Assembly: GCA_963847705.1 (NCBI GenBank)
Contig: CAWKBC010000032.1
Location: 224,001 to 288,000 of the forward strand
DNA from: an uncultured Pseudomonadota bacterium
Lineage (GTDB): Bacteria; Myxococcota_A; Polyangia; Fen-1088
Reading direction: 5' to 3'
Length of the DNA: 64,000 nt
The position numbers and the translations under genes are program-made. The notes under the pieces are model-generated. The model searched no databases. It was not told the origin of the DNA and saw nothing but the letters and a program-made list of their open reading frames with translations. This document shows, in pieces, positions 46,503 through 64,000 of this stretch; position 1 is the stretch's first letter, and every line of letters starts with the position of its first letter.

Positions 46503-47786
46503 CTATGTCCCTTCCGCGGCGCCACAGGCACCGCACCCACCGCTCGAACAAGACGACGACGAAGCGGTGCTCAAGACTTTGAGTGAGCTGGCCCGCGCCA
46601 GGGGCCGCAGCGCGCCAGCGGCCGCCTGGCCCGCCTGCACGCTGTCGACCGCGCGCAGGAGGCGTTCGTGGTGGGCGCCGCCCTCGCAGAACGCGCACTC
46701 GCCATGCGCCGGCGGCGTGAAGCCGACGACGCGGGCGCGCAGGTGGGCCACCTCGCAGAAGAACTCCACCGGCGCCTCCGGATCGCCATGCTCCAACTCG
46801 CTGGTGGCCGCGCAGGCGGAGCAGAGCGAACGAATGTGGCAGTCGGTGCACTTGGTCGGGCGGGTGATGGTCTTGTCGCGCACCTTGGCCAGGAAGCCCT
46901 CCCACCCCTCCTTGAAGCTCCCCCGGCGCAGATCGAACTGGTCGCTGTGCGACAGCACGCAGATGCTCATCTTCCCTTCGGGATCGATGGCGAAGGAATT
47001 GATGCCGCCGCCGCACTGGTAGACCTTGTCGCGGGTGCCGACCACCGGGCGCGCCCGGGAGGCCAGCTCGGCCCATCCGGCGCGGCGCACCGGATCGAGG
47101 ACGTCGAGCTCGACCATCTCGGCCGGGGAGAGCCGCACCTCGAGCGGGCTGTGCGAGCAGTCGATGCGGGCGTTGATCATCCCGTCGAACTTGAACTCCA
47201 CCCCCAGCTCCTCGGCGAACTGCTGCATCTGGGGGACCTCGTGGCGGTTGATGCTCACCGCGACGGTCTTGAGCCGCAGCGGCAGGCCGCGCTCGGTGAG
47301 CAGGCGGATGCCGCGCATGCAGCGATCGAACGAGCCCGGCACGCCGGTGAGGCGCTCGTAGGTCTCGCGCGTGCGGCCGTAGAGGGTGATCTCCACGGCG
47401 AACGGGCGCCACTCGGCCAGCATGTCGGCGAGCTCCGCCGTCAGCTGCGTGCCGTTGGTGAACAGCGTCACCAGGAGGCCGCGGCGCTTGGCGTGCTGGT
47501 AGATCTCCACGAAGTCGCGGCGGGCCAGGATCTCCCCGCCGGTGAGCAGCAGCCAGAGGCAGCCGGCGTCGGCCATCTCGTCGATGATCCGGAAGACCTC
47601 GGCGGTCGACAGCTCGCTCGCGCGCGCCGCCGCGTCCCCGACCGGGAGGTTGTTGTAGCAGTGCGCGCAGGCCAGCGGGCAGCGGTGGGTGAGCTCGATG
47701 GTGCCGTTGGTGGGCAGGCGTCCGCCTCGCGCCCGCCGGTAGATCTGCGCGCTGAAGTCGCCGTAGCTCCGGAGCGCGGCGTTCAT
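46503..47786 (-). CDS. Radical SAM/SPASM peptide maturase
   Basis: CPLACAHC (CxxxCxxC), TGGE, TNG; SPASM YQCGGG...GKMSIC and CTDCHIRSLCSAC...FFC; ATGA overlap with the PqqD gene. Confidence 0.93.
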   Translation of the reverse strand: MNAALRSYGDFSAQIYRRARGGRLPTNGTIELTHRCPLACAHCYNNLPVGDAAARASELSTAEVFRIIDEMADAGCLWLLLTGGEILARRDFVEIYQHAKRRGLLVTLFTNGTQLTAELADMLAEWRPFAVEITLYGRTRETYERLTGVPGSFDRCMRGIRLLTERGLPLRLKTVAVSINRHEVPQMQQFAEELGVEFKFDGMINARIDCSHSPLEVRLSPAEMVELDVLDPVRRAGWAELASRARPVVGTRDKVYQCGGGINSFAIDPEGKMSICVLSHSDQFDLRRGSFKEGWEGFLAKVRDKTITRPTKCTDCHIRSLCSACAATSELEHGDPEAPVEFFCEVAHLRARVVGFTPPAHGECAFCEGGAHHERLLRAVDSVQAGQAAAGALRPLARASSLKVLSTASSSSCSSGGCGACGAAEGT

Positions 47787-48100
47787 GGGGAGACCTCGCT
47801 GACGAGACCCTTGGCCAGCAGCAGCGCCACGAACTCCTGGACGTCGGCGGCGGCCTCGGCCTCGCTGACTTCGTACTCGCGCGACAGCGCGGCCGCCAGC
47901 GCCTGCACCGAGCTCTTCCCGTCGATCCATTTCCAGATCGAGGCGCCCACCGCGTTGAGGGTGAAGATCGACTCGAGGTCGCCGACGCCGCCGCGGACAG
48001 GAACGATGATGACGTCGTCGGCGATCGTGCGGCTGACGAAGCCTTCGGCCTTGCGAGGGAAGCGGGCAGACGAGATGCCTTCGGTGCTCAACACGTACAT
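47783..48100 (-). CDS. PqqD family RiPP recognition element (RRE)
   Basis: IFTLNAVGASIWKWIDG..SV..LA..L..EYEV...A..DV.EFV..L...GLV. Confidence 0.92.
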   Translation of the reverse strand: MYVLSTEGISSARFPRKAEGFVSRTIADDVIIVPVRGGVGDLESIFTLNAVGASIWKWIDGKSSVQALAAALSREYEVSEAEAAADVQEFVALLLAKGLVSEVSP

Positions 48101-48104
48101 AGTA

Positions 48105-50552
48105 TCAGCTGTCTGCCCTCGAACCTTGAGCCGCGTCAGCAAGATGGCGACGCTCGAGGCGCCTCCGACGTCGCAGCCCGGCCACCCCGCCGGAGGCCAT
48201 CAGGGCCCAGAGCACGAGCTGGCCCGGCCGCCCCCGCCCCGAAAGCTCGCATCCGCAGCCATCGCCGCTGGGAGGCAGGAGCGAGGCCGCGTCTTGGGAA
48301 CCGTCGCTGCCGCCGTGGCCGCTTGCACCGTCGCCCCGACCGGCGTCGGGCATTGTGGCGACCGACGCATCGGCGACCACCCCGGCGTCCGGCCCGGCGG
48401 CGTCGGTCCCGGCCCCGTCGGGGCCGAGGCCCGCGTCGCCCGGCGCCGGCGGCGGCGTGGGCAGGCCAAAAATTGTCGGATCGGCGAACAGGATCCAGGT
48501 CCGTTGCGCGTCGACGTCGGTGATGGCGTGCTTGGCCGCGATGGCGGCCTCGCCGAGCGAGGTGTGGGTCAAGCGCGCGACGAACGCCTGGTCGAGAACC
48601 CCCTGCTGGTCGAACGAGGTGAGCGTCGAGGAGGCCCAGACGGCGACGGCGCCGCCGGCGGGCGCCTTGGTGAGCGTCTCGGCCAGGCTCTCGGTGTACA
48701 CGTCCTGAAAAAAACCGTTCAGGCAGTTCATGCTGACGTAGATGGAGAGGGGGGCGTTGGTGAGCGCCGCGGCGTCGCTGCCCGAGAAGAGGCCATCCCA
48801 CACCGAGACCGATCCGTGGCCCATGTAGTTGACCAGGAACGGCCCGGCATCGAGCAGCGGAAGCAGGGCCGCCTCCGTCGAGCTCGGCTGGCTGAGAAAA
48901 AAATTGCTGGTCGGCATCGAGCCGGCGACCGACGCCGCGCTCGCCTGACTGTCCTCCTCGAACGAGAGGCCGGTCTCATCGGCGTCCGCGATGAAGAGCC
49001 CGCCCTGCGGCAGGTCGGCGGCGCCGCCGTAGCCCAGGATCTTCCCCACCACCGTCGACGCCTCCGAGGCCGTGCGGACCGAGAGTCGTCCGATGGCGAT
49101 GTCCTCGACGCCGTCGGCGTCCCAGTCGACGAACCAGCCATCGGAGGCGGTCTCCATCTGCTGCGTGTCGACGAGCTTGGTGGGGGCGAAGTCGAAGTCC
49201 CCCTGCCCCAGGAAGTTGCGCGGATCGAAGGAGGCGTCGCCGACCAGCAGCACGAACCGCGGCGCCGGCGTCCAGCTGCCGTGAACCGCCTGCAGAAAAT
49301 CGCGCACCGCGAAGGGCGTCTTGTCGCCGGCGCCGAACTCGTCGTACACGTCCTGCAGGTCGACCAGCTGCACCGACCAGCCCTGCTGCCGCCGCGCCGT
49401 CACCAGCGGCGCCAGCGCGTCGATGAAGAGAGCGTTCGAGAGGATCACCATCTCGCCGGCGCGCGGGTCCGTCCAGCGGGACGGCCGGCTGGCGGTGACC
49501 GACGAGGGCGCCACGACGGCGGCGCCGGTGAAGGCGTACAGCGCCGGCCAGGAGGTCTCCCCCGGTGTGTTCACCGTGACGGTGGTGCTCGACCCGGCGG
49601 TGACCACGCTGGTCACGAGCTCGATCGGGCTGGTCGGATCGGTCACGTCCATCACCCGCACGTCGGACGACGAGAACCCCGCGATGGCGATCGGCGTGGC
49701 GGGCGGCGCGGTCAGGTTGAGCGCGTTCCCGTCGGCGACGAACAGGTGCTGGTAGTCGATCTCCACGCTGGCCACCAGCGACTCGTCGGGAGAATCCCCC
49801 TCCCCGACCAGCAGAACGTCGTTGGCCCCCTCGCGCACGCTGACCGGCGAGAGCGCGCAGGTCTGGGAGTCCTGCCCGGCGAACGCGCAGACGCCGACCG
49901 GCTGGCCGTCGAGCGAGATCGCCACCTGGTGGTCTCCGGCCGTGACCCCCTGCAGGACGACCTGCAGCCCGGCCGGCTGCGCCCCGTCGAGGTGAGTGAC
50001 CGACACCGACTCGGTCACGCCGGCGGGGCCGACGACGTCGCCGAAGAAGTTGCTGGCTTCGCCGTTCTTCAGCGCCGCGAAGTAGTTGGTTCGCTGGCGC
50101 AGCACCGCGGCACCTGGAAAATCCTGGGGCGCCGCTCCGCTGGCCGGATACGCCGAGAGGGGGACGCGTTTGCCGGCCGTCCCCGGTCCGACGACCAGCC
50201 AGTAGGTGCGCGCCCCCGTCCAGAGCGTATCGCGCCCCTGGCCGTAGAACTCGATCGCCTCGCCGCTGTCGAACACCGCGTCGCCGTTGCCGGTGATCGA
50301 CAGCGCCTGTTCGACGCCGTCGGCGAAGAGCTGGAGCTGCGCCGGGTCGACCCCTGGAGCGAGCCCGGCCGCGACCAGGGCCGGCTGCGAGACGTGTTGC
50401 CACCCCGTCGAGGTCACCACCAGCTTGACGGCGGGCATCGCGGCCAGCTCCAGCTGGCTCGGCGCGCCCGGGCTGGCCGCAAATGCCGCGGGCGTCGCTG
50501 GCAGGCCGAACGCGCCGAACGCGCCGGCCACGACGAGAGACCAGCGCGCCAT
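48105..50552 (-). CDS. C25 family (gingipain/PorU-like) cysteine peptidase with signal peptide and MYXO-CTERM
   Basis: VKLVVTSTGW, IEFYGQG, DVYDEFG, VLLVGDASFDP, IAIGRLSV, catalytic NYMGHGS and SMNCLNG, WILFADP; tail GCGCELSG + TM + RRRRR. Confidence 0.9.
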   Translation of the reverse strand: MARWSLVVAGAFGAFGLPATPAAFAASPGAPSQLELAAMPAVKLVVTSTGWQHVSQPALVAAGLAPGVDPAQLQLFADGVEQALSITGNGDAVFDSGEAIEFYGQGRDTLWTGARTYWLVVGPGTAGKRVPLSAYPASGAAPQDFPGAAVLRQRTNYFAALKNGEASNFFGDVVGPAGVTESVSVTHLDGAQPAGLQVVLQGVTAGDHQVAISLDGQPVGVCAFAGQDSQTCALSPVSVREGANDVLLVGEGDSPDESLVASVEIDYQHLFVADGNALNLTAPPATPIAIAGFSSSDVRVMDVTDPTSPIELVTSVVTAGSSTTVTVNTPGETSWPALYAFTGAAVVAPSSVTASRPSRWTDPRAGEMVILSNALFIDALAPLVTARRQQGWSVQLVDLQDVYDEFGAGDKTPFAVRDFLQAVHGSWTPAPRFVLLVGDASFDPRNFLGQGDFDFAPTKLVDTQQMETASDGWFVDWDADGVEDIAIGRLSVRTASEASTVVGKILGYGGAADLPQGGLFIADADETGLSFEEDSQASAASVAGSMPTSNFFLSQPSSTEAALLPLLDAGPFLVNYMGHGSVSVWDGLFSGSDAAALTNAPLSIYVSMNCLNGFFQDVYTESLAETLTKAPAGGAVAVWASSTLTSFDQQGVLDQAFVARLTHTSLGEAAIAAKHAITDVDAQRTWILFADPTIFGLPTPPPAPGDAGLGPDGAGTDAAGPDAGVVADASVATMPDAGRGDGASGHGGSDGSQDAASLLPPSGDGCGCELSGRGRPGQLVLWALMASGGVAGLRRRRRLERRHLADAAQGSRADS

Positions 50553-50649
50553 GCGTTCCCCACATCGGGAGTCCCCTGACGGACTAAAGATGCGAATTCG
50601 GTCACCAACCGCTAAGGCCAGGCGGCAGCTCGACCGATTTCGGGTGAAG

Positions 50650-53600
50650 ATGACTCGGAGGAGAGCTCTGTTCGGCGTCTCGGGGGGAGTCCTGGCGCTC
50701 GCCATCGCCTGGCCGGCCGCCGTCCAGGCCGCCGCCTGCGCCACCACCGCCTGCGGTTCCGCCACCAGCGTGACCTACAACGGCGCGGCCTTGACCTTTG
50801 CCGGCGCTTCGACGAACGGGACGGTGCGCAGCGAGCTCTGGTACCTGGTCGCGCCGACGAGCGGCGTCCACAACGTGGTGGTCACCGCGCCCAACGCCGA
50901 CGCGGTCACCGCCACCTCGATGTCGTTCACCGGCGTCAACCAGACCACCCCCCTCGGCACCACGGTCTCGGCGATCGGCACCGGCACGACCACGTCGGTC
51001 TCCACCACCAGCGCGGTCGGCGAGCCGCTGTTCGACGTCGTCGGCGCCGTCGGAACCACCCCACCGACCGTGGCCGGCGCGACCCAGACCGTTCGCCAGA
51101 CCAACACCACCGCGACCGGCCTCGACCAGGTGGTCCTCGGCTCCAGCACCGCGCCGGGCGCGGGCGCCACGTCGATCAGCATGTCCTGGACCATCCCCAG
51201 CGCCGACTGGGCCCAGATCGCGGTCCCCATCCAGGCCTCCACCGCACTGACCGCCGTCGCGGTGAGCGCTCTGACCGCGACGTTGCAGCCCGACGGCGTG
51301 CTGGTCCAGTGGAGCGATGGCTATGAGCCGTCGTCGCTGGGATTCTACGTCTACCGCAGCGACGGTACCGGAGGCCGCGTCCGGCTGAACGCCTCGGTCA
51401 TCGCCGGCGGCGCGCTCGGCACGGGAGCGTCGTCGTTCTCCTGGAAGGACGCCTCGGCGGGCTGGGACGGCGCGGTGTCGTACTGGGTCGAAGACGTCGG
51501 CCTCGACGGCTCGATGAGCTGGTACGGTCCGGTCACCCCACGACCCGCCGGCGCCATCGACGCAACGGGCGGCGCGGCCGCGAGCTCGTCCGGCGGCGCC
51601 GCCAGCAGCTGGTCCGGCGCGGGCGGCCAGGCGCCGGCAGAATCGGCCGGGGCGGGCGGGTGCACGGTCGCCGCGCGCGATCCGCGCAGCACGCTGCTGC
51701 AGCTGGTGCTGGCGCTCGGCCTGGTCGCCGGCGTGCGGCGGCGGAAGCGGCTCGCCGCGCTGGTCGTCCTCTACGCCCTGGCGGTCGCCGCCAGCGGGCT
51801 GCTTTCGCCCCGGACCGCCGCAGGCGCGGGCGGCGTCGCCGTCGACGCGACCGCCACCGGGTCGGGCGCCAGCGGATTGACCTTCTCGCACACGATGGGC
51901 GCCGGCGCGAACGGGCTCCTGATCGTGGGGGTGGTCGTCCCGATCACCTGCGACGACACCACGACCGACGGGGCCAACTGCGGGGCCTGCGGCACGACCT
52001 GCGCGCAGGATGTCGGAGCTTCGCTCGGCACGGGTCTGCTCGGCCTGTGGCGCTTCGACGAGGGGAGCGGCACCACCTCGGCCGACTCGTCCGGCAACGG
52101 CAACACGGCCACCCTCTTCAACAGCCCGAGCTGGACCACCGGTTACTCCGGCGACGCCGTCGAGGGGAACGGCACCAGCAGCTACGTCGCGGCCAACATC
52201 GGGACCTGGTTCGGGGCGAACAACACCCTGTCGGTCTCCGCCTGGACCTACGTCAACGCCAGCTCCAGCGGCCCGGTGGTCGGGATCGCCGGGACCAACG
52301 GCTGGAACATGCCATTCCTCAGCGTCAACGGCTCGACCGTCTACGGTTGGCTGTGGGGCGTGCCCGGAACCGACCCGGCCAGCAGCCCCCTCGCGGCGAC
52401 GGTCACCCTCGACGCCTGGCACTTCCTGGCCATCACCTACGATCCGAACGGTGGTGGCGCGGGGATCGGCCAGGAGATCTTCTACGTCGACGGCATGGTC
52501 TCCAGCTCGGCCACCGGGACCTACCAGCCGTCTGGAACGAGCGACGTCTTCACCACGCAGATCGCCGGCGCAAAGCCCAACGGAGGCGCCATGGACAGCG
52601 TCCTGCTCGGCAAGGTCGACGAGGTGCGCGCCTACAACCGGACTCTGAGCGCCGCAGACATCACCGCGCTCTACGGCGGGCGGCTCACCTGCGCGGCCAG
52701 CACCTGCGCGGCCTGCTCCGGGGGCCAGACCGCTTGCAGCGGCAGCTGTACCGACACGTCGACCGACATCGACAACTGCGGCGGCTGCGGACACGCCTGC
52801 AACATCGCCGGCGGCGAAACCTGCGTGGGGGGAACTTGCACCTGCACCACCGGCACCGACTGCAGTGGCGTCTGCTCCACCACCTCCAACGATCCCAACA
52901 ACTGCGGTGGCTGTGGCATCGCTTGCGGAATGCCGACCAGCGCCGCCATCGACAGCGGGCTCATCGGGCACTGGAACCTCGATGAGGGGTCCGGCACGAC
53001 CTCGGCCGATTCGTCGGGGAACGGCAACACGGCGACACTCTCCGGCGCGACCTGGACCACAGGCTACTCCGGCGACGCGGTCGCGGGTGACGGCAGCTCT
53101 ACCTACGTGAGCGCCAACCTGGGGAGCTATTTCGGCACCAACGCCGCCCTCACCGCCAGCGCCTGGGTCTACGCCACCGCGACCACCAACGGTCCTGTCT
53201 TCGGCGTCACCTCCATCCCGGCGGGCGGCGGCTGGAACATGCCCTTCCTCAGCATCGCCGGCTCAACCGCTTACGGATGGTTGTGGGGGGTCCCGGGGAT
53301 CGACGGCGGCTCGAGCCCGCTGGCCGCCACCGTCAGCCTCGACGCCTGGCACTTCCTGGCCATCACTTACACGCCGTCGGGAGGGTCAGGGACGGAGAGG
53401 TTCTACGTCGACGGCGCGCTGGCCGGCACCGCGACCGGCGCCTACCAGCCCTCGGGCCAGGTCGACACCTGGTCCACCACCATCCCCGGCGCCAGGCCAA
53501 GCGCCGTCACCAACAGCTTCCTCAACGGCAAGGTTGACGAGGTGCGCGCCTACAGCCGCGCGCTCAGCGCCGCCGAGATCTCGATCCTCTACAACGCCCG

Positions 53601-54657
53601 CCAGACCTGTTCGTCGTCGATCTGCGGCGGCTGCACCGGCGGCGAGTCGCTCTGTGGCGGCGATTGCACCGACAAGACCATCGACGCCAGCAACTGCGGC
53701 GCCTGCGGCACCAGCTGCAACATCTCCGGCGGTGAGAGCTGCATCTCCAGCAGCTGCGGCTGCGCCAGCGGCACCGACTGCAGCACCGTCTGCGTCGACA
53801 CCACCTCCGATCAGAACAACTGCGGCGGCTGCGGCGCCCCCTGCGGCGCTGTCACCTGCGCCTCCTGCGGCAGCGGGATGGCGGGCCTGTGGCACCTCGA
53901 CGAGGGCTCCGGGTCGACGTCGGCCGATTCATCCGGCAACAACCACACCGCCACGCTCAACAGCAGCCCCGGCTGGGTGACGGGCGAGGCGGGCAACGGG
54001 CTGGCGTTCAACGGCACCAGCTACATGACGGCCACGCTGGGAAGCTGGTTCGGCAACAACAACCCCCTCTCCGCCAGCGCCTGGGTCTTCGCCACCTCCA
54101 CCACGAACGGGCCGATCTTCGGCGTCACCGACACCCTGCCGGGGACGAACTGGAACATGCCTTTCCTGAGCATTGCCGGGTCGACCGTCTACGGCTGGCT
54201 CTGGTCGATGGCCAACAACAATCCCCTGTCGGCGACGGTCTCGCTGAACGCCTGGCACCTCCTCACGATCACCTACGATCCGAACGGAGGCGCCGCCGGC
54301 ACCGGCCAGGAGATCTTCTACGTCGACGGCGCGGTGTCGCAGTCCTCGGACATCACCTACTGGCCCTCGGGCAACAGCGACTTCCTCACCACGCAGATCC
54401 AAAACGCCAAGCCGAGCGGCGTGAACAACATTCTGACCGGCACCATCGACGAGCTCCGCGCCTATACCCGCGTCCTCTCGGCGGGTGAGATCGCGCTGCT
54501 CTACAACGCGCGTCAGACCTGCGTGGGCTCCGTCTGCACCGGCTGTCCGACGGGGACCACCAGCTGCGGCGGCGGCGTCTGCCAGAACACCGCCTGCGGT
54601 GCCTGCGGAAGTCCCTGCTCGGGCACCCAGCAGTGCGTCTCCGGCACCTGCATGTAG
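50650..54657 (+). CDS. Large secreted polyprotein-like adhesin: signal peptide, beta domain, C25-associated TAV domain, internal MYXO-CTERM, second signal peptide, three LamG domains with Cys-rich repeats
   Basis: Signal ending AVQA; TAVAVSALTA...GFYVYR...YWVEDVGLDG..WYGPV; GGCTVAA-TM-RRRKR-TM; three W.(F/L)DEGSG.TSADSSGN...(V/I)DE(V/L)RAY.R.LS LamG units. Confidence 0.85.
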   Translation: MTRRRALFGVSGGVLALAIAWPAAVQAAACATTACGSATSVTYNGAALTFAGASTNGTVRSELWYLVAPTSGVHNVVVTAPNADAVTATSMSFTGVNQTTPLGTTVSAIGTGTTTSVSTTSAVGEPLFDVVGAVGTTPPTVAGATQTVRQTNTTATGLDQVVLGSSTAPGAGATSISMSWTIPSADWAQIAVPIQASTALTAVAVSALTATLQPDGVLVQWSDGYEPSSLGFYVYRSDGTGGRVRLNASVIAGGALGTGASSFSWKDASAGWDGAVSYWVEDVGLDGSMSWYGPVTPRPAGAIDATGGAAASSSGGAASSWSGAGGQAPAESAGAGGCTVAARDPRSTLLQLVLALGLVAGVRRRKRLAALVVLYALAVAASGLLSPRTAAGAGGVAVDATATGSGASGLTFSHTMGAGANGLLIVGVVVPITCDDTTTDGANCGACGTTCAQDVGASLGTGLLGLWRFDEGSGTTSADSSGNGNTATLFNSPSWTTGYSGDAVEGNGTSSYVAANIGTWFGANNTLSVSAWTYVNASSSGPVVGIAGTNGWNMPFLSVNGSTVYGWLWGVPGTDPASSPLAATVTLDAWHFLAITYDPNGGGAGIGQEIFYVDGMVSSSATGTYQPSGTSDVFTTQIAGAKPNGGAMDSVLLGKVDEVRAYNRTLSAADITALYGGRLTCAASTCAACSGGQTACSGSCTDTSTDIDNCGGCGHACNIAGGETCVGGTCTCTTGTDCSGVCSTTSNDPNNCGGCGIACGMPTSAAIDSGLIGHWNLDEGSGTTSADSSGNGNTATLSGATWTTGYSGDAVAGDGSSTYVSANLGSYFGTNAALTASAWVYATATTNGPVFGVTSIPAGGGWNMPFLSIAGSTAYGWLWGVPGIDGGSSPLAATVSLDAWHFLAITYTPSGGSGTERFYVDGALAGTATGAYQPSGQVDTWSTTIPGARPSAVTNSFLNGKVDEVRAYSRALSAAEISILYNARQTCSSSICGGCTGGESLCGGDCTDKTIDASNCGACGTSCNISGGESCISSSCGCASGTDCSTVCVDTTSDQNNCGGCGAPCGAVTCASCGSGMAGLWHLDEGSGSTSADSSGNNHTATLNSSPGWVTGEAGNGLAFNGTSYMTATLGSWFGNNNPLSASAWVFATSTTNGPIFGVTDTLPGTNWNMPFLSIAGSTVYGWLWSMANNNPLSATVSLNAWHLLTITYDPNGGAAGTGQEIFYVDGAVSQSSDITYWPSGNSDFLTTQIQNAKPSGVNNILTGTIDELRAYTRVLSAGEIALLYNARQTCVGSVCTGCPTGTTSCGGGVCQNTACGACGSPCSGTQQCVSGTCM

Positions 54658-54697
54658 CGCCGGAGCGTCGCGCTTCAGAAGACGCAGCGCTTCGTCG

Positions 54698-57379
54698 ATG
54701 AGTCTGCAACAGATGCGCACCAATCTCAGGCTCACCAAAGGTCTCGCCTTGCTGGCGATGAGTGGCATGTTCCTGGTTGCCTGCGGCGACGCGTCCCCCG
54801 GAAGCTCGGGCGGCGCCGCCGGCGCCGGCGGTGCCCAGACAGGCGGCGCGGGTGGGTCAGGGACCGGCGGCACGACCGGGACGGGTGGGCTGGCCGGCGG
54901 CTCGGGAGGCGGCAGCGTCGGGACGGGCGGCGGCGGCGGCACGGGCGGGGGCGGCGGCGGCGGCACGGGCGGCGGCGTCGGCACGGGCGGCGGCGTCGGG
55001 TCGGGCGGCGGCGTCGGCACGGGCGGCGTGAGCGGTGCGGCCGGCAGCCAGGCGACCGGCGGCAGCGGCGGCGCGGCCGGGGGCGCGACGGGCGGAGGCA
55101 GCGGTGCTGGCGGTTCGGCGATGGCCGGCGCAGGCGGCGGAACCACGGACGCGGGGGCGGTCGACACCGGAATCGACGTCCCGCCCCCTCCCCCGGCGCC
55201 AGCGACGACCATTCCCACCACCCCGATCGACTTCGGAGCGATCGACTGCGGCGCGGCCGGCGGAACGCTTCCCTTCTCCTTCACCAACACGGGAACCGCC
55301 AGTCTCCATTACCGCGCCGCCATCGATCTGGGCGGCACCTTCTCGCTGCAGGGGGCCGCGGCCGACGGCTCCCTCACCGGCGACGTTGCCCCCGGCTCGA
55401 CCGCACAGCTGACGATCGTGGCCGGGATCATCCCGACGACCAGCGCCGTCGGCGCCGTCCTCACCGGAGCGTTGACGGTGGCGACCAACGCCGCCGGTGC
55501 CGACAACACGCAGATCGCCATCGCCATGACCGCCCAGGGAAGCACCTGCACGCTCACCTGTGGCGCGTTCACCAAGTGTACGCCCAGCAGCGCCTCTCCC
55601 TATTGCGCCAACACGGAGACCGACAACATCAACTGCGGCGCCTGCGGTCACACCTGCGGCACCGGTGAGGTCTGCACCAACGGCAGCTGCGAGCTCACCT
55701 GTGGCGCGCTCACCAAGTGCTCACCGTCGTCCGGCAGCGATTACTGCGCCAACACCACCACCGACAGCAACAACTGCGGTGCCTGCGGCAACGTCTGTGG
55801 CACGGGGCAAGTCTGCAGCGGCGGCGTCTGCACCCTCTCTTGCGGCGCGCTCACCAAGTGCTCGCCGTCGACGGGCGCCCCCTATTGCGCCAACACGCTG
55901 ACCGACAACGCCAACTGCGGCACCTGCGGCAACCCCTGCACCGGCGCCGACGTCTGCTCGAACGGCGTCTGTACGCTCACCTGCGGCGCGCTCACCACCT
56001 GCGCTCCCACCAGCGGCGCCCCCTACTGCGCCAACACGCTGACCGACAACGCCAACTGCGGCACCTGCGGCAATCCCTGCACCGGCGCCGACGTCTGCAC
56101 CAACGGCGTCTGCACCATCGCCTGCGGCGCGCTCTCGACCTGCACGCCGTCGAGCAGCGCCCCCTACTGCGCCAACTTCGCCACCGACAACGCCAACTGC
56201 GGCAGCTGCGGCAACGTCTGCGGCGCCGGCCAGGTCTGCAGCGGCGGCGGCTGCACGCTCACCTGCGGCGCGCTCTCGAAGTGCACCCCCACGAGCGGCA
56301 CCCCCTACTGCGCCAACTTCGCCACCGATACCGCCAACTGCGGCAGCTGCGGCAACGTCTGCGGCGCCGGCCAATCCTGCATGGGCGGCGTCTGCCAGGC
56401 CAACTGCTCGGGGAGCGAGACGGCCTGCGGCGGGTTGTGCACCAACACCTCGTTCGATCCGAGCAACTGCGGCGCCTGCGGCAACGGCTGTGCGTTCGCG
56501 CAGGGCTCCGCGGCCTGCGCCGGTGGGGGGTGCTTCCTCACCGCCTGCAACGCCGGCTACGCCGACTGCAACCACGCCCAGTCGGACGGCTGCGAGACCA
56601 ACACCGACAGCGACGCCGCCAACTGCGGCGCCTGCGGCAAGTCCTGCGCGCTCGGGGAGACCTGCGTCTCGGCCGTCTGCACCGCCAACCTCTCGCAAGG
56701 GCTCATCGGCTACTGGAAGATGGACGACGCCCCGGGCTCGACCAAGGCCGCCGACAGCGGCCCCAACAACCTCCCCGGGTTCGTCCAGGGGAACGTCACC
56801 TTCCTTCCCACGGCCGGCAAGCAAGGCTCGGGCGCGATCTCCCTGGCGGGCAGCGGCTACATCCGCGTCCCCTTCCCCAACAACGCCATCAACCAAGGGA
56901 CCGGCATCGCCATCCCGCAGGGAAACATGACCTTCTCGATGTGGTTCAAGACCAACACCACGGGCCCGGGCGGCTTGCAGGTCGTGGAGGGGAACGCAGC
57001 CTGGGGCTCGGGCTACGATCGCGTGGTGGGCAGCGGAACCGGCTCGACGTTGCAGTACAACGCTTGGCACGAGGTCAACATGACAGGGGTCGTGACCGTC
57101 AACGACGGCAACTGGCACCTCATGACCTACGTCCTCGACGAGTCGAACGGCTTCCTGACCTATATCGACGGCAGCCCCGACGCCAGCTCTTCGACGCTGA
57201 CCGACAATTGCGGCGAAGGGTGCAGCGGCTTCAACTGGGCCGCGGAGTACTGGATCGGCACCGGTGCCGACGGCCGTTTCAGCGCCGGCAACTTCAGTGG
57301 CCTCATCGACGACGTGCGCATGTACAACCACGTCCTTTCGCCGGCCGCGGTGATGCAGCTCTACAACGCCACCAAGTAG
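54698..57379 (+). CDS. Lipoprotein with Gly-rich linker, Ig-like domain, about eight Cys-rich (D..NCG.CG) repeats and a C-terminal LamG domain
   Basis: LVAC lipobox; six repeats at a 120-bp period; GLIGYWKMDD...GLIDDVRMYNHVLS. Confidence 0.85.
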   Translation: MSLQQMRTNLRLTKGLALLAMSGMFLVACGDASPGSSGGAAGAGGAQTGGAGGSGTGGTTGTGGLAGGSGGGSVGTGGGGGTGGGGGGGTGGGVGTGGGVGSGGGVGTGGVSGAAGSQATGGSGGAAGGATGGGSGAGGSAMAGAGGGTTDAGAVDTGIDVPPPPPAPATTIPTTPIDFGAIDCGAAGGTLPFSFTNTGTASLHYRAAIDLGGTFSLQGAAADGSLTGDVAPGSTAQLTIVAGIIPTTSAVGAVLTGALTVATNAAGADNTQIAIAMTAQGSTCTLTCGAFTKCTPSSASPYCANTETDNINCGACGHTCGTGEVCTNGSCELTCGALTKCSPSSGSDYCANTTTDSNNCGACGNVCGTGQVCSGGVCTLSCGALTKCSPSTGAPYCANTLTDNANCGTCGNPCTGADVCSNGVCTLTCGALTTCAPTSGAPYCANTLTDNANCGTCGNPCTGADVCTNGVCTIACGALSTCTPSSSAPYCANFATDNANCGSCGNVCGAGQVCSGGGCTLTCGALSKCTPTSGTPYCANFATDTANCGSCGNVCGAGQSCMGGVCQANCSGSETACGGLCTNTSFDPSNCGACGNGCAFAQGSAACAGGGCFLTACNAGYADCNHAQSDGCETNTDSDAANCGACGKSCALGETCVSAVCTANLSQGLIGYWKMDDAPGSTKAADSGPNNLPGFVQGNVTFLPTAGKQGSGAISLAGSGYIRVPFPNNAINQGTGIAIPQGNMTFSMWFKTNTTGPGGLQVVEGNAAWGSGYDRVVGSGTGSTLQYNAWHEVNMTGVVTVNDGNWHLMTYVLDESNGFLTYIDGSPDASSSTLTDNCGEGCSGFNWAAEYWIGTGADGRFSAGNFSGLIDDVRMYNHVLSPAAVMQLYNATK

Positions 57380-58064: not shown

Positions 58065-58117
58065 GCCCGCGCTCGCCACTGCCAAACCGGACCTGACCGA
58101 GAGCCTCTCGATTTTAA

Positions 58118-58439
58118 CGAGCGAGAGCTCCGCGTGGCTTGGCCACGCGGAGCGGAGGGGGACCGGGCAGAGCGAGCACAGCGTGACGGACGGGGATGCG
58201 AGCGCAGCGTGGCGGACGGGAGAGCGAGCGCAGCGTGGCGGACGCGAGAGCGAGCGCAGCGTGGCGGACGCGAGAGCGAGCGCAGCGTGGCTCTGCCACG
58301 CGGAGCGAGGGGGGACCGGGGGGTGCGAGCGGCAGCGAGCCGCCCCCCGTAAAATCAAAGGGGTGCGAGCGGCAGCGAGCCGCCCCCCGTAAAATCAAAG
58401 GGGTGCGAGCGGCAGCGAGCCACCCCCCGTAAAATCAAA
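58118..58439. repeat. Composite intergenic REP-like element: 11-bp hairpin, 26-bp unit x3.5, 40-bp unit x3
   Basis: CTCCGCGTGGC-ttg-GCCACGCGGAG near 58128; GCGAGCGCAGCGTGGCGGACGCGAGA at 58198-58291; GGGGTGCGAGCGGCAGCGAGCCGCCCCCCGTAAAATCAAA at 58320-58439. Confidence 0.85.
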
Positions 58440-59052
58440 GCACGAAGTTGACCAGCAGCTTCTCCTCGCCGCGCAGAAGCTCGGTCGGGAACCGCCACTT
58501 CTTGAGATGACTGCTGTAACAGTGGCGGACGTCTCGGGCCGCACCGTCGGCGCCCAGGATCTGCACCAGCTCGACGGCGCCGTTGGCGCCAATCTCGAAG
58601 GCGGCGCCGAGCTCGAGCGGTGGGCCGCGATCGGGATCGTCGAGGCACTCGCGCAGCTCGGGTGCCCGCTCGGCGGCGAAGGCGCGCAACGCCTTCGTGC
58701 GCTCCCCCTCTTCGAGCGGCTTCCCGGCGGGCAGCGGCGTGAGCGCCGCAAGGGCGGCGCGCCCCACCTTGCCATGCCGCGCGACGTGCGACGCGCCGAT
58801 GGCGCCGCCGCCGCCGCTCGCCGCCGGCGGCGCGACGCAGGCGACCGTGGGGGGACAGACGGCGGGCGGCGTGGTGACCGCGGGAACCGCGCGCCTCAGA
58901 GCCAGCAGGTAGCCGGCGCCGCCGCCGGCTGCGAGCAGCAGGAGGGCCAGCGCCGCCAGCGCCGGCCCGCGCGGTCGACCGCCCCCGCGCCGGCCCGGCG
59001 CGCCGCCGCCGGAATGGCGCAACCAGGCGGGGAGATCGGCGGAGGGTGCCAT
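58435..59052 (-). CDS. Single-TM protein with a C-terminal AgmX/PglI (TonB-C-like) domain
   Basis: TM ALAALALLLLAAGGGAGYLL; ELRECL...AFEIGANGAVELV...VRHC....KKWRFP. Confidence 0.6.
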   Translation of the reverse strand: MAPSADLPAWLRHSGGGAPGRRGGGRPRGPALAALALLLLAAGGGAGYLLALRRAVPAVTTPPAVCPPTVACVAPPAASGGGGAIGASHVARHGKVGRAALAALTPLPAGKPLEEGERTKALRAFAAERAPELRECLDDPDRGPPLELGAAFEIGANGAVELVQILGADGAARDVRHCYSSHLKKWRFPTELLRGEEKLLVNFVL

Positions 59053-59072: not shown

Positions 59073-60152
59073 TCAGTGGCTCGTCGCCAGCGTGGCGACG
59101 CTGCTGCCGAGCTGCTGGATGGCGGCGGCCGGCATCGAACCGATGAGCTGGCAGAAATCGGCGCTCTGCCCGGTGCCGGGATTGGCGGCGTTGAGCGCCG
59201 CCATGAGTGGCGTGAAGTAGAGGTTCGGCGACGGGCCGATGTCGTCGAGCACGTTGAGCGGGAACCCCGTCACCGCTTTGCACTTGGCCTCGAAGTCGGT
59301 CTGGCTCTGCCCTTCGGCGGTGGCGATCGCCACCTGCACCACCTGCGACGGCGAGATGCTGGTGCCGCTCGAGAACGAGAGCCAGGTGACGCCGCCGGAG
59401 GCGTCGGTGTCGAGGAAGATGTCCGTGGGCGAGCGGCCGTTGACGTTGCAAGCGTCGCTCGGCAGCGCGCAGCGCCGGGCGACCGGCTGCAGGTAGACGA
59501 CGATGAACAGATCGCGGGGGCTGTCGAAGAAGGCGCTGCGATCGATCCCACCCTGCCCCGCCGGCAGCGCGGCCGAGTCGAGGCCCTGCCCGAAGCCGAT
59601 CAGGTTTTTCGCCTCGCAGGACTGGCCGTCGCCGTCGAAGTTCCCCGATCCGGCCAGGATCTGCAGCGCCAGCGGCAGGTCGGCGTCGTCGATGTTCGCC
59701 AGCGTCGGCGCGATGATCGGCAGCAGGCTCTGGTAGTTGCTGAGCCCCGCGTCTGCCCCCAGGAGGCCCAGCAGCGCCAGCGCAGGGGGGAGCGACTGGC
59801 TGGAGCTCGAGCCCTGGCGGCCGAGCAGCAGCCGCGGCCCGAACTCGTCACCGTAGGTCGAGATGAGCCCCATGTTCGCGATCGAGAGCCCCCGCGAGCC
59901 CAGGTAGTTCATGAAGCCGGTCATGATCCCGGCGTACTGGTTGGAGAGGTTCACCGAGGTTCGCGCGAGGTTGGCGACGAAGAGGATGCTCGCCGTCAAG
60001 GGAGGTGGCTGCGGCAGCGCGTCGGGGCGGACGGGAAACGGGACCGGGATGTAGATCTTCTTGGTCATCCCGCCGTCGGGGCTGGCGGGCGTGATGATCG
60101 TGCAACCGGCCCCCGCCAGCACCAGAATCAAGAGGAGCGATCGGGTCTTCAT
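59073..60152 (-). CDS. Lipoprotein with a degenerate vWA-like fold
   Basis: GAGC lipobox; SILFVANL...F..YL....MGLIST resembles the vWA beta1-alpha1-beta2 region without a MIDAS; ATGA overlap with the upstream gene. Confidence 0.6.
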   Translation of the reverse strand: MKTRSLLLILVLAGAGCTIITPASPDGGMTKKIYIPVPFPVRPDALPQPPPLTASILFVANLARTSVNLSNQYAGIMTGFMNYLGSRGLSIANMGLISTYGDEFGPRLLLGRQGSSSSQSLPPALALLGLLGADAGLSNYQSLLPIIAPTLANIDDADLPLALQILAGSGNFDGDGQSCEAKNLIGFGQGLDSAALPAGQGGIDRSAFFDSPRDLFIVVYLQPVARRCALPSDACNVNGRSPTDIFLDTDASGGVTWLSFSSGTSISPSQVVQVAIATAEGQSQTDFEAKCKAVTGFPLNVLDDIGPSPNLYFTPLMAALNAANPGTGQSADFCQLIGSMPAAAIQQLGSSVATLATSH

Positions 60153-61957
60153 AGTGCCACCATCTTTCCCTTGTCCTTCGCCGTCGCGGAGCCACTGCCG
60201 GACTTTCCACTCTCGGCGTGCGACGTTTGGGGCGCCTGCAGGCCACGGGCGCGCAGCGTCTGTCGCAGCGCCGCGTAGAGCGCGCGGCGGGCCTCGGCCG
60301 TCTCGCGCGGCGTCGGCGTGACGACCAGCGAGAGATCCTCCTCCAGCGCCGCGGCCACCGTCCGTGGCAGCGTGGAGAGCGTGCGCGAGGCGACCGTCGC
60401 CGAAGCGGTGCGCAGAAAGCGCGCCAGGATCTCCGTCGGGACCCCCACCACCGTGGCCCCGAGCACCTCCTCGGAGACCAGCTCGAACGACTGCTCGGTG
60501 ATGAGCGCGGCCTCGATCGCGCGCGCCTTGACCGGATCGGCGCGCCGCATGGCGTCCAGGATCTCGGCCTGCTCGTCCATCGGCCGCTCCTCGACCAGCT
60601 CCACCGCCAGATCGATGTCGCCGGTCTGGCCCGAGTCGAGGTGGGCCTGTTCGATGGCCCGCGCCCGCAACGTGGCCGCCACGTCGAGCAGGTGCTCCTT
60701 CGAGAGCGACTTGGGAGAGGCGATGGCCGCCGCCAGCGCCGCGCGCTCGCCGGTGGAGCGCGACTCGAGATAGGTCGAACGCAGATGGGCGGGCGCGTAG
60801 CGCAGCGCCGCCGCCCGCACGCTGGGCGGCTCGGGGTCGAGCACCGCGGCCAGCCGCGCCGGCGACACGCCGAGCAGAAACGCGAACTCCTGCTCGACCG
60901 GATCGTCGGCGCCGACCATCCGGTGTTTGAGGATGCGCCGGTGCAGCTGGTCGACGATCTCGCGCGTGTCCGAGCGGGGCCGTCCGTCGACGAGCAGCGC
61001 AGCGGCCTCGCGCAACGCCGAGGCGCAGGCCGGATCGCCGCGGAGATCCTCCACCACGCCGGGGCCGATGAGCTCGACGGCGACGGCGACCTTTTCGATC
61101 TGGTTCTCGCGCAGGAGCTCCCCCATCACGCGCCGGGCCAGCACCCGATCCTCGCGCAGGGCGCGCCGCACCTCGGGGAGATGATCGACCGCCGCCGGCA
61201 GCGCGCCGGCACCGGAGGCCTCGCCGCGCCGATCGGGGGCGGTCCCCTGCTGGATGTTGCGCCGGGCGCGCCGGTCGGCGAGCGCGCTCAGCAGCGCAAA
61301 GCCGAGCGCCCCGATGAGCAGGCCCAGGACGCCGAGCGCGATGGCCACCACCCAGGGGATTCCATGCGTCCCGTTGTCGACGGCCGGCGCGGGCGGCGGC
61401 GGGGGGATCGGGTACGGCTGCGGCGCCGGCTGCTCCCGCTCACGCTGCGGCGCCGGCTGGGGCGGGGGCGGATAGGCGTAGGGAGACATCTCACGCTGTT
61501 GCGGCTGAGGCCGCGGCGTCGGAAAGGCGATCACGCTCTCGGTGATCTCGACGGGAACGTCGAGCATGTCGAGCTTGCTCTTGAGGAGGTTCTTGAGGTC
61601 CTTGCGAAACTGGGCGGGGAGCTTGGCGTCGAGCGTCACCGCCACCTCGACCCGCTCCGCCACGAACTCGGTCCCGGGCGTCAGCTCCTCGAAGCCGGGC
61701 GCCGCGCCGGCCGGCAGCGCCGTGGGGCGATTGACCCGGACGTCGACGTACTTGAGCTCGGCCTGGCCGGGCGCCATCTCCTCCAGCACCGGGGCGATGC
61801 GCCGCGTGACCTCATCGCGCACGTTCGCTTCCAGCAGCTGCGCGTCGTTGCCGAACGGTGGTCGCCGCTCCGCGCGCGCGGAGCCCGCCGCCAACAGGGT
61901 CGCCAGCGCCACCGCGGCCGCCCCCATCCCGGTTCTCATATGAATGATGCGCTTCAT
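60149..61957 (-). CDS. FliF-like (RBM3 + TM + C-tail)-FliG fusion protein (putative rotor)
   Basis: Signal peptide; RRIAPVLEE...ERVEVAVTLD...LKNLL; TM; REDRVLARRVM; EKVAVAVELIG (FliG-N); FAFL...EPPSV (FliG-M); DPVKARAIE...LPRTVAAALEEDL (FliG-C). Confidence 0.7.
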   Translation of the reverse strand: MKRIIHMRTGMGAAAVALATLLAAGSARAERRPPFGNDAQLLEANVRDEVTRRIAPVLEEMAPGQAELKYVDVRVNRPTALPAGAAPGFEELTPGTEFVAERVEVAVTLDAKLPAQFRKDLKNLLKSKLDMLDVPVEITESVIAFPTPRPQPQQREMSPYAYPPPPQPAPQREREQPAPQPYPIPPPPPAPAVDNGTHGIPWVVAIALGVLGLLIGALGFALLSALADRRARRNIQQGTAPDRRGEASGAGALPAAVDHLPEVRRALREDRVLARRVMGELLRENQIEKVAVAVELIGPGVVEDLRGDPACASALREAAALLVDGRPRSDTREIVDQLHRRILKHRMVGADDPVEQEFAFLLGVSPARLAAVLDPEPPSVRAAALRYAPAHLRSTYLESRSTGERAALAAAIASPKSLSKEHLLDVAATLRARAIEQAHLDSGQTGDIDLAVELVEERPMDEQAEILDAMRRADPVKARAIEAALITEQSFELVSEEVLGATVVGVPTEILARFLRTASATVASRTLSTLPRTVAAALEEDLSLVVTPTPRETAEARRALYAALRQTLRARGLQAPQTSHAESGKSGSGSATAKDKGKMVAL

Positions 61958-61971
61958 GAAACCACTCCCAG

Positions 61972-62685
61972 CTAGTGGACCCTAATCACGACCCTGCGAT
62001 TTTCGCTGCGGGCGCGCGTCTGCGCGGAGGCATCGCCCTGCACGGGCGTGGCCGGCCGCGTGTCGGCGTATCCCTGGGCGGAGAGTCGCTGCGGACTGAC
62101 CCCCGCCGCGGTGAAGGACTTGAGCACGTTGATCGCCCGCGCCGAGGAGAGCTCCCAGTTCGAGTCGAACCGGCCCGTGTGGATCGGGACATCGTCGGTG
62201 TGCCCCTCGATGGCGATCTGGTAGCGGTTGTCGATGGTGGGGAGCAGCTTCCCCACCCGATCGATCGCCGCGCGCCCGGTCGGCGTGATGTCGGCCTGGC
62301 CGCTGTCGAACAGCAGCGCATTCTTCAGCTCCATGCGCAGCCCCTCGTCGTCGACGACGGTCTTCACCTGCTGGGTCAGCCCCTGCGCCGCGATCACCGC
62401 GTCGATCTTCTCCTTCAGCACGTCGAGCGAGGGCGGCGGTGCCTGATGCGAGATCGCCGCGGAGACCATCTCGAACTTGCGCAGGTTCACCTTCGACATG
62501 GCCAGCGCCAGGATCAGAAACGCCAGCAACAGGCTGACCACGTCGACGTAGGGGATGAGCCAGGAGGTGTCGTCCTCCTCGCCGTAGGCCAGCAGATCGC
62601 TGGCATCGGGGCCCCGGCTGGGGCTGGCCTTGGCGGAGCGCTTGGCGCCGCCGCCGGGCCCGCCGCCGGTCTCGAGGCCGATCAC
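61972..62685 (-). CDS. motB: MotB family stator protein (TM with conserved Asp, plug, OmpA-like PG-binding domain)
   Basis: WLIPYVD..SLLLAF; LLFDSG; IEGHTD; NWELSSARA; GYADTRP; NRRV; GTGA overlap with the motA stop. Confidence 0.9.
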   Translation of the reverse strand: MIGLETGGGPGGGAKRSAKASPSRGPDASDLLAYGEEDDTSWLIPYVDVVSLLLAFLILALAMSKVNLRKFEMVSAAISHQAPPPSLDVLKEKIDAVIAAQGLTQQVKTVVDDEGLRMELKNALLFDSGQADITPTGRAAIDRVGKLLPTIDNRYQIAIEGHTDDVPIHTGRFDSNWELSSARAINVLKSFTAAGVSPQRLSAQGYADTRPATPVQGDASAQTRARSENRRVVIRVH

Positions 62686-63443
62686 GCGGCCTCCGCGGCG
62701 GAGGGGGCACCGCCGCCCGCGCCGGCCAAGAGGCGCAGGTCGTAGAGCGACCGCCCCTCGGCGATGCTGGTGAGCCCGCGCTCGAGCAGGCGCGCCGACA
62801 CCGAGAGGTTGCGTCCGTAGTTCTCGATCCGCTTGGCGAACGGCGACCAGATCGCATACGCCAGGATGAGGCCGTAGAACGTCGCCAGCTGCGCCACCGC
62901 CATCGCCGGGCCCAGCTGCTCGAAGTTCTTCAGGTTGATGAGCATGTTCACGAGGCCAACGATGGTCCCCATCAGGCCGACGGCCGGCGTGGTGCGGGCC
63001 AGAAAGCGGAACACCTCCTCCGCCTCTTTGACCTGCGACAGGCGCGCGTACGACAGCGTCAGCACGGTCTCGCGCGCATCGGCGCCGCCGCCCGGCTGGA
63101 GCAACAACGGACCGACCTCGCGCAGCAGCGGATCCTCGGCCTCGGCGAGCACCTTGGAGGCCTCGACCGTTCGCCCCTGCTTGAGCTCGCGGCCGAACCG
63201 ATAGAGATCGGCGATCATGCGCGACTCGGCCCGCCGCGCGTTGTAGCGCAGCGCCTGGGCCAGGGTCACCACGCCGCGCCAGATCTCGCGCACGTCGTGC
63301 CCCACCAGCAGGATCGACGGCGGCGCCCCCAGCAAGAGGATGAGCGCGGCCGGGTGAAAGAAGCCGGTGAACCCGTTCGGCATGTGGCTGCGCGTGGAGA
63401 CCAGCGTCGCCCACAATCCCGCCAGCCCGATGATGATGTGCAT
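62682..63443 (-). CDS. motA: MotA family stator protein
   Basis: PAALILLLG; DPLL; PAVGLMGTIVGLVNML..L; LGPAMAVA..ATFYG; PFAKRI. Confidence 0.88.
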   Translation of the reverse strand: MHIIIGLAGLWATLVSTRSHMPNGFTGFFHPAALILLLGAPPSILLVGHDVREIWRGVVTLAQALRYNARRAESRMIADLYRFGRELKQGRTVEASKVLAEAEDPLLREVGPLLLQPGGGADARETVLTLSYARLSQVKEAEEVFRFLARTTPAVGLMGTIVGLVNMLINLKNFEQLGPAMAVAQLATFYGLILAYAIWSPFAKRIENYGRNLSVSARLLERGLTSIAEGRSLYDLRLLAGAGGGAPSAAEAA

Positions 63444-63452
63444 CTTCCCTTT

Positions 63453-64000
63453 CTACTTTCCGAGGCGCTGAAGCGCCTCCAGCACCGCGAGGTTGAAGGG
63501 GTTCAGCCGCAGGGCTTCTTGCCAGGCTTCCCGCGCCAGGTTCTTGTTGCCGAGGCGCTCGTAAAGGGACCCCTTCATCGAGAGGATGTGCTCGTCTTCG
63601 GGGTACTGCCTCTCGAGATCGACCAGCTCCACCAGCCCCAGCTCGTAATGGCGCGTGCGATAGAGATCCTTCACCCGCGCCAGCGTCAGCAGATAGCTCG
63701 CCTTCGCCGCAGGCGGCGTCCCGGCCGCGCCCGGGACCTTGTCGCCCGGCCGCGCGGTCCTCTGTGCCAGACTCCGGTTGGCGTCGCGGTCGGTCGGATG
63801 GGCCGCCCCCTCGTCGACCGCGTCGTCCGGGCCGGGAGCATCGCTCTTGGCGCGCTCGGCGGCCGCCATGTTGTCGGCCATGATCTCGCGATCGGCGGCG
63901 GTCGCCGTGGCCATGTCGATGGACATGGGCGCCGCCGGCTTCCCGCTGAGTGGAACCTTGACCTCGTAGGCGGTCGCGATCTCCGGGAGCTGAATCTCCC
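63453..64000 (-). CDS. TPR-containing protein; 5' end lies outside the window
   Basis: Frame open to the window edge; LSMKGSLYERLG..NLAREAWQEALRLNP. Confidence 0.75.
   Translation of the reverse strand, partial: EIQLPEIATAYEVKVPLSGKPAAPMSIDMATATAADREIMADNMAAAERAKSDAPGPDDAVDEGAAHPTDRDANRSLAQRTARPGDKVPGAAGTPPAAKASYLLTLARVKDLYRTRHYELGLVELVDLERQYPEDEHILSMKGSLYERLGNKNLAREAWQEALRLNPFNLAVLEALQRLGK

Follow-up and report, generated by a model that had tools for sequence, protein, structure and literature searches.

On contig CAWKBC010000032.1 (C32) of the uncultured bacterial assembly GCA_963847705.1, an 11-gene operon on the minus strand extends into the 64,000-nucleotide (nt) stretch analysed here (the window, C32:224001-288000; coordinates without a prefix are window positions). 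It contains a gene for a one-chain rotor-like protein of 602 aa (60149..61957, minus strand, as are all features below unless stated), in which a signal peptide, a domain like the third ring-building motif (RBM3) of FliF, a Pro-rich linker, a single transmembrane (TM) helix, a FliF-C-like helix and FliG N-, M- and C-like segments follow one another. Directly upstream lie genes for a MotB-type stator subunit (61972..62685, 237 aa) and a MotA-type stator subunit (62682..63443, 253 aa). Judging from sequence, we conclude that this is a real, conserved rotor–stator system built from flagellar parts, and that the rotor gene belongs to a larger unit, a trans-envelope system of several genes that is conserved.

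One search returned 190 homologues of the rotor reading frame and another 244 representatives; the closest carry the source name 'Polyangia bacterium'. In an AlphaFold model made with a 141-row alignment (mean predicted local distance difference test score, pLDDT, 81.5; predicted template modelling score 0.50), residues 39-142 form an alpha-beta-loop-beta-alpha-beta domain, the Pro linker is disordered, a TM helix starts at residue 202 and the cytoplasmic part is helical; Foldseek ranked FliG first for this model, with FliF RBM3 next. The initial annotation, a model's reading of the letters alone, had called a cleavable signal peptide. Residues 1-29 (61871..61957), judged by hand, bear this out, with a basic N-terminus, a hydrophobic stretch and an A-x-A motif at 27-29 (here A-R-A before E30), which is present in 95-96 of 98 close homologues. 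The Pro-rich linker and single TM of that annotation also stand: residues 147-201 (61355..61519) are Pro/Gln-rich and disordered (pLDDT about 50 or below), the predicted TM helix spans residues 202-227 (61277..61354) with basic residues after it, and 129/141 alignment rows have one hydrophobic TM peak after residue 45.

The periplasmic domain (residues 38-146; 61520..61846) was assigned by structure and profile. When it was folded alone and compared with 48,161 chains, the top three matches were FliF RBM3 (Z 11.5, 10.9 and 10.4; 105-110 residues aligned at a root-mean-square deviation, rmsd, of 4.5-4.7), and the fourth was the C-terminal domain of MamB (MamB-CTD, Z 9.9). On the full model RBM3 scored Z 11.2 against 10.5 for MamB-CTD, so that Z alone does not decide the fold; OsmC folds also score near RBM3. 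Using hhalign against a small FliF set, three rotor segments matched in order (38-76 to FliF 230-268, 98-130 to 372-413 and 261-283 to 526-548), each of them weak (E 0.002-0.14), while a long form of the protein with two RBM-like domains gave one continuous match through the RBM3 end, TM and FliF-C (E 1.8e-4), colinear with FliF 230-551. There was no phmmer match to PDB sequences for the N-domain, and no Pfam match to YscJ_FliF_C or YscJ_FliF in the rotor. The RBM3-like alpha/beta fold proposed at the outset is thus upheld by the three best structures and the colinear segments, with a small margin to an unrelated fold. The match of the FliF C-terminal-like helix pair (residues 260-283; 61109..61180; E 0.019) is weak alone, yet colinear. 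RBM1, RBM2, the first TM and the long beta-collar were not found in the chain, which has one periplasmic domain and one TM, in line with the earlier claim that RBM1/2 are missing. The 'short collar' had to be given up: at the position of the roughly 100-residue beta-collar of FliF there is a 22-residue loop (77-98) whose PGF motif is conserved and which the model shows at low confidence and without collar strands. A complex prediction with three copies of the RBM domain scored 0.00, which is evidence neither way on ring formation.

In the cytoplasmic half, residues 284-576 of the model align to FliG 4-324 (Z 12.7). The FliG_C domain (residues 443-573; 60239..60631; Z 14.0, rmsd 1.8 to 1qc7_B) matched its Pfam profile above the cut-off (469-567, E 1e-6), and the FliG_M-like domain (residues 354-437; 60647..60898; Z 11.4, rmsd 1.8 to 4fq0_C) matched below it (E 0.011); of the profile searches that had been suggested, therefore, only FliG_C came out above the cut-off, YscJ_FliF_C being without a match. 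Over both domains, however, hhalign gave a probability of 98.6 (E 5e-16, residues 358-571), and an ungapped 210-residue match spans FliG M and C. The rotor scored 29.1 bits with the NCBIfam fliG model, against a cut-off of 226.7. The predicted N segment (residues 284-350; 60908..61108) is a shortened helical domain, some 30 residues smaller than E. coli FliG_N, which aligns to FliG_N only in whole-chain superpositions and has no match to the FliG_N profile. Thus, of the three FliG segments first described, M and C are firm and N is shortened and seen by structure, not by profile.

A sceptical view of these assignments would be that the C-terminal half is MgtE-N/ARM-like only and the N-domain a generic KH- or CDF-CTD-like fold. 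The closeness of the MamB-CTD and OsmC folds to RBM3 and weak MgtE_N matches (E 0.16 in Pfam) speak for it. Nevertheless, a 53-row family profile matched FliG structures at up to E 7e-25 (3hjl) and MgtE at 0.006, which refutes an MgtE-N identity and confirms the FliG assignment; the ungapped match, the colinear FliF segments and the adjoining MotAB genes point the same way, and we regard this view as scarcely credible.

We conclude that the neighbouring stator is of the flagellar type. The MotB-type subunit has a MotB_plug and an OmpA-like domain by profile, and its ion-binding Asp48 is kept by alignment, as is the corresponding Asp in 23/25 MotB rows, the other two being broken or mis-framed open reading frames (ORFs). 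The MotA-type subunit was placed by profile, trees and alignment; its best models were PomA/MotP/MotA (1e-19 to 1e-17) versus 1e-4 for TolQ/ExbB, and it groups with flagellar MotA. A stator plug and an OmpA domain are reported as flagellar-stator-specific traits (PMC12505986).

We then compared charged residues in the interface between rotor and stator, using 53 family rows against E. coli FliG and 11 canonical FliG sequences. The torque-helix equivalent, LPRTVAAALEEDL, comprises residues 530-542 (nt 60332-60370), and EPPS, which replaces the EHPQ motif in the FliG_M-like domain, residues 376-379 (nt 60821-60832), both where the initial annotation had placed them. At the FliG sites K264, R281, D288/D289 and R297 the rotor has R516, T533, E540/D541 and T549, respectively. 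The D289 column is acidic in 51/53 family rows and the D288 column in 32/53, whereas the R281 column is Arg in 16/53, compared with 11/11 canonical FliG, and is acidic in 25/26 long-form rows. Hence only part of the supposed retention of torque charges remains: the acidic D288/D289 sites are kept, and R281 and R297 are lost. The Arg that had been read as conserved is R532 (the Arg of LPRT), which aligns one position before R281 and is kept in 76/98 close and 2/42 distant homologues. In the stator, 38/39 partner MotA have a basic residue in the R90 column (K88 here) and 0/39 an acidic one in the E98 column (S96 here); the flagellar-type controls, 120 homologues of a single flagellar MotA that were not individually checked, carry R in 120/120 and E in 103/120. 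The R90–D289 stator–rotor pair is therefore kept and the E98–R281 pair lost on both sides, as would fit a co-evolving physical pair. The degeneracy of the EHPQ FliM-binding motif proved general, EHPQ occurring in 0/141 alignment rows.

Phylogenetic trees were quick IQ-TREE runs with Shimodaira–Hasegawa-like approximate likelihood ratio test (SH-aLRT) support and no approximately unbiased (AU) test. Partner MotA proteins of Myxococcota and of a second phylum formed a single group (SH-aLRT 83), distinct both from flagellar MotA (95) and from a second fusion-associated group (92), and all three were separated from six ExbB/TolQ-like proteins (SH-aLRT 100). The FliG M/C tree has the same three groups. 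An earlier MotA tree had very long branches, and its root placement made the operon stators look paraphyletic to flagellar MotA; for the MotA tree with the supports given here, E. coli MotA was dropped, as were five long ExbB-like rows, and 14 flagellar-type rows were added, and its base was not resolved and the order of origin not indicated. The second fusion-associated group belongs to a second paralogous rotor type in the second phylum (L212:5147-7381, L211:5202-7346, L213:5268-7355). These proteins, of 695-744 aa, consist of a signal peptide, an RBM-like domain (by eye), a coiled coil, a TM and a FliG-like part with FliG_C above cut-off; the rotor gene is followed by MotA, MotB and a HAMP/PP2C-like protein, and a divergent TPR lipoprotein and barrel are also present. 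The second-type rotors keep Arg at R281, and 6/9 of the group's MotA keep an acid at E98.

The fusion, counted at E < 1e-40, was present in 20/301 genomes of the window's phylum, namely the window's own, 18/26 in family f16 and one in family f60; in the window's own genus, 19/24 match. Family members with source names are Lujinxingia vulgaris, L. litoralis and a Bradymonadaceae bacterium. Flagellin and FliM were not found in 16 of the 20 carriers and occurred together in the other four (4/16 of those at least 90% complete), all of which have a second, separate FliG-like gene. In the window's genome (6.1 Mb, 84.7% complete) there was one FliG_C match, and flagellin, a rod motif and FliM were not found. 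The rarity of FliM among carriers and the loss of EHPQ support the early suggestion that a FliM switch is lacking. In the second phylum a 680-970-aa form with two RBM-like domains, counted at E < 1e-60, was present in 78/131 genomes, and all 78 were flagellin-positive. This long form (P0215, P0202; L077:10001-12205) has a CxxxC pair in each of its two tandem RBM-like domains; the majority of Myxococcota members that fall outside the window's clade have a single pair of this kind, and none is present within that clade. About 100/301 genomes of the phylum also have a stand-alone 330-400-aa FliG-like ORF, and ten that were read keep R281 and D288/D289, which suggests that many Myxococcota are flagellated.

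These counts bear on the idea that the operon is an accessory or leftover flagellar part, made up of a surplus stator set and a rotor gene in decay. The universal flagellin of second-phylum carriers and the partial loss of torque residues would agree with it, as would Bdellovibrio, in which three motAB pairs are tied to flagellar rotation (PMC13689555). However, 12 of the 16 carriers that are at least 90% complete have no detected flagellin or FliM, the four flagellated carriers keep a separate FliG-like gene, the rotor frame is intact, gene order is held at 25-35% identity, and the system forms separate clades in both trees; we consider this idea very improbable.

The remaining operon genes point to the outer membrane. 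Upstream of the stator genes lie, in order, a lipoprotein-like gene (606 aa; C32:293351-295171), an OMP_myx_plus-like barrel (C32:292563-293354; E 1e-10 to 1e-13, below cut-off), a 685-aa protein with no family match (C32:290482-292539), a barrel-like protein of 276 aa (C32:289655-290485), the barrel partner (C32:288229-289671), with a possible CsgG/FlgO/LpoB-like N-domain and no match in Pfam or PDB sequences, and a tetratricopeptide repeat (TPR) lipoprotein-like core partner of 256 aa (63453..64000, its start 223 nt past the window end; C32:287453-288223). After MotA, MotB and the rotor come a lipoprotein-like gene of 359 aa, tentatively vWA-like (59073..60152), which overlaps the rotor stop codon, and a TM protein of 205 aa (58435..59052), a homologue of which matches the C-terminal domain of AgmX/PglI weakly (E 0.0095, under the cut-off). 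The four Myxococcota reference loci that were compared have all 11 genes in the same order. A locus scan with a single protein gave one locus. The barrel partner was found in exactly the same 20/301 genomes as the fusion. In the second phylum, 76/78 fusion carriers have the barrel partner and 74/78 have one orthologous MotA each; in three genomes both partners occur with the fusion undetected. In 14/14 loci read the TPR gene came next after the barrel partner, and the full partner-TPR-MotA-MotB-rotor arrangement was adjacent in only 4/19 second-phylum loci read. Two soil metatranscriptome runs contained 5-6% of words, and their contigs match operon pieces from relatives, although contigs cannot show transcription. 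Since no flagellin or rod gene was found in this genome and the rotor's neighbours are a flagellar-type stator and outer-membrane proteins, the rotor likely forms a non-flagellar, ion-powered envelope machine.

We also considered a dispersed type III secretion system, in which SctJ would supply RBM1/2, the rotor RBM3 and FliG, and SctQ would stand in for FliM/N around an export gate inside the ring. The window's genome has type III secretion-like genes for SctJ (beside a sigma-70 gene), SctQ, SctR/FliP and SctV (C32 about 100.4 kb, 431 kb and 535 kb; C29 about 307 kb), an FlhA/SctV-family gene occurs in 32/32 Myxococcota carriers tested, and a FliF–FliG fusion exists in Chlamydia (PMC4768692). 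None of the Sct genes is in the operon, however, and the FliM-binding motif is gone; the 32/32 may be background, since carriers only were counted. In the second phylum 34/37 carriers tested have one FlhA/SctV match and the other three have two fragments, two genes and no match, respectively; 35/37 thus have a single such gene, presumably flagellar FlhA, so that no dedicated export gate travels with the system. A dispersed secretion system therefore seems improbable to us, and the rotor–stator system is likely not export-linked. The initial annotation had said as much, and the single second-phylum gene favours it; the window's genome alone, with its scattered Sct genes, cannot show it.

On balance we lean slightly towards a ring driven by the stator, unswitched and free of export, that would act on the outer membrane; the ring, its contact with the stator, its rotation and its output are all predicted. 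Several observations weigh against it. The pair that is lost, E98–R281, is the one reported to be more important for torque, and the pair that is kept, R90–D289, is reported to position the stator (review PMC4030992), which weakens a claim of ordinary torque; the D289 acid is also lost in three stator-linked long-form rotors. No rod, bushing or shaft protein was identified, leaving rotation across the wall unexplained. RBM3 is ahead of the unrelated MamB/CDF C-terminal fold by 0.7-1.6 Z, and the partner-domain leads are below the tool's 0.9 mark (CsgG/FlgO-like 0.85-0.87; vWA-like 0.86-0.89). Finally, the 20 carriers come from three families, and because kin are not independent we give no test statistic for co-occurrence.

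The charge pairs and the missing shaft would both suit a non-rotating energy transducer, in which a FliG-bearing scaffold recruits and unplugs stators and outer-membrane barrels are pulled in the manner of TonB, Tol or Agl-Glt. OMP_myx_plus-type barrels and AgmX/PglI-C are modules of myxobacterial Agl-Glt-type systems, and the operon has an OMP_myx_plus-like barrel, albeit below cut-off, and an AgmX/PglI-C-like protein. Yet full FliG M/C and RBM3 are kept in all three lineage groups, which is more than a recruiter seems to need, and the stator is flagellar-type, its plug and OmpA domain being reported as particular to flagellar stators; we think such a transducer unlikely, though a serious alternative.

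In the stator-driven ring, signal cleavage would leave the RBM3-like domain in the periplasm and FliG in the cytoplasm, and subunits would oligomerise through RBM3 and through FliG M/C stacking, as in the MS- and C-rings. A MotA5B2 stator, anchored to the wall by the MotB OmpA-like domain and passing ions through Asp48, would engage the ring via the kept K88(R90)-E540/D541(D288/D289) pair on a remodelled interface. Because there is no FliM site there would be no CheY switching, and drive would be in one direction. The load would be the core pair common to both phyla, the CsgG/FlgO/LpoB-like barrel protein and the TPR lipoprotein, and force would pass to outer-membrane partners instead of a flagellum. 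In Myxococcota, the extra Glt-like barrels and the vWA-like lipoprotein point to the moving or pulling of a surface adhesin, for gliding or prey contact; this is the weakest step, and we hold it to be doubtful.

Compared with the flagellar core (FliF, FliG and MotA5MotB2/PomA5PomB2), the system has the RBM3-like domain, TM, FliF-C helix and FliG M/C with a shortened N-like segment, a stator with plug, OmpA domain and ion-binding Asp, and the R90–D289 pair. It differs in having one chain, in lacking the first TM, RBM1, RBM2, beta-collar, EHPQ, FliM and the E98–R281 pair, and in an operon with barrels and a TPR lipoprotein in place of rod, hook, filament and export genes; FliG itself is soluble and about 330 aa, whereas the rotor is a 602-aa membrane protein. 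In the Agl-Glt gliding machine of Myxococcus, a 5:2-type ion motor is linked to a surface lipoprotein, to TPR proteins and to barrels of the outer membrane. The genes of the present system likewise encode an ion motor, a TPR protein, barrels and lipoproteins, but AglRQS is TolQR-like, unlike the flagellar-type stator here, and has no FliG/RBM rotor. Neither a TolQR-like AglRQS motor nor Glt proteins above cut-off were found in the operon, and the GltJ model scored 22.8 bits on the rotor (cut-off 450), in the Pro-TM region only. As in the type IX secretion/gliding rotor GldLM-GldKN (PMC13104615), a ring turned by stators would have its effect at the outer membrane; those proteins are unrelated and that ring sits in the periplasm and outer membrane. 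A natural FliF–FliG fusion in non-flagellated bacteria is also known from Chlamydiaceae (PMC4768692), where the protein is reported to have about 330 aa, two TMs, an RBM2-like region, a FliG_M-like part only and no RBM3; the present rotor has an RBM3-like domain, a single TM and both FliG M and C, and is accompanied by a cognate stator. An engineered Vibrio FliF–FliG fusion forms rings (PMC10941966) and a Salmonella deletion-fusion motor rotates (PMC9389320), but these are laboratory constructs from flagellar genes, studied as flagellar parts.

Literature searches, with subscription papers and bioRxiv supplements outside their scope, found no description of the system, nor is there one in the accessible part of PMC13277936; in the searchable literature FliG–stator gearing is described only for the flagellum. 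It is possible, though we rate it a little short of even, that this is a second, non-flagellar use of the MotAB–FliG gear, with a minimal one-protein rotor, a co-evolved stator and an outer-membrane machine in gliding and predatory bacteria, in at least two deep paralogous types, and maybe a living model of a motor core without export, switch or filament. If so, a three-protein version (rotor, MotA and MotB) would offer the simplest way to ask how a ring is turned by a 5:2 ion motor and which contacts this takes, both sides here having lost one of the two textbook charge pairs. It would also bear on whether type III export is dispensable for a rotor–stator core, which is central to flagellar origins. 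Bradymonadales are reported to be gliding, contact-dependent predators (PMC7188933), and with L. vulgaris and L. litoralis in culture, genetics and tomography are feasible.

Elsewhere in the window, several ORF translations at about 58100-58800 repeat the same phrases, which suggests that short non-coding repeats lie immediately downstream of the operon. At 46503-50765, PqqD-like and radical SAM genes come after one for a peptidase C25, and this group may be a peptide-modification cluster. Divergent from the peptidase C25 genes, large Cys-rich, laminin-G-like surface proteins (domains named by eye) are encoded on the plus strand at 50287-57379. Among the other genomes, G275 has 25 matches to flagellin-N, and some of these lie in ORFs that are 1300-2270 aa long.

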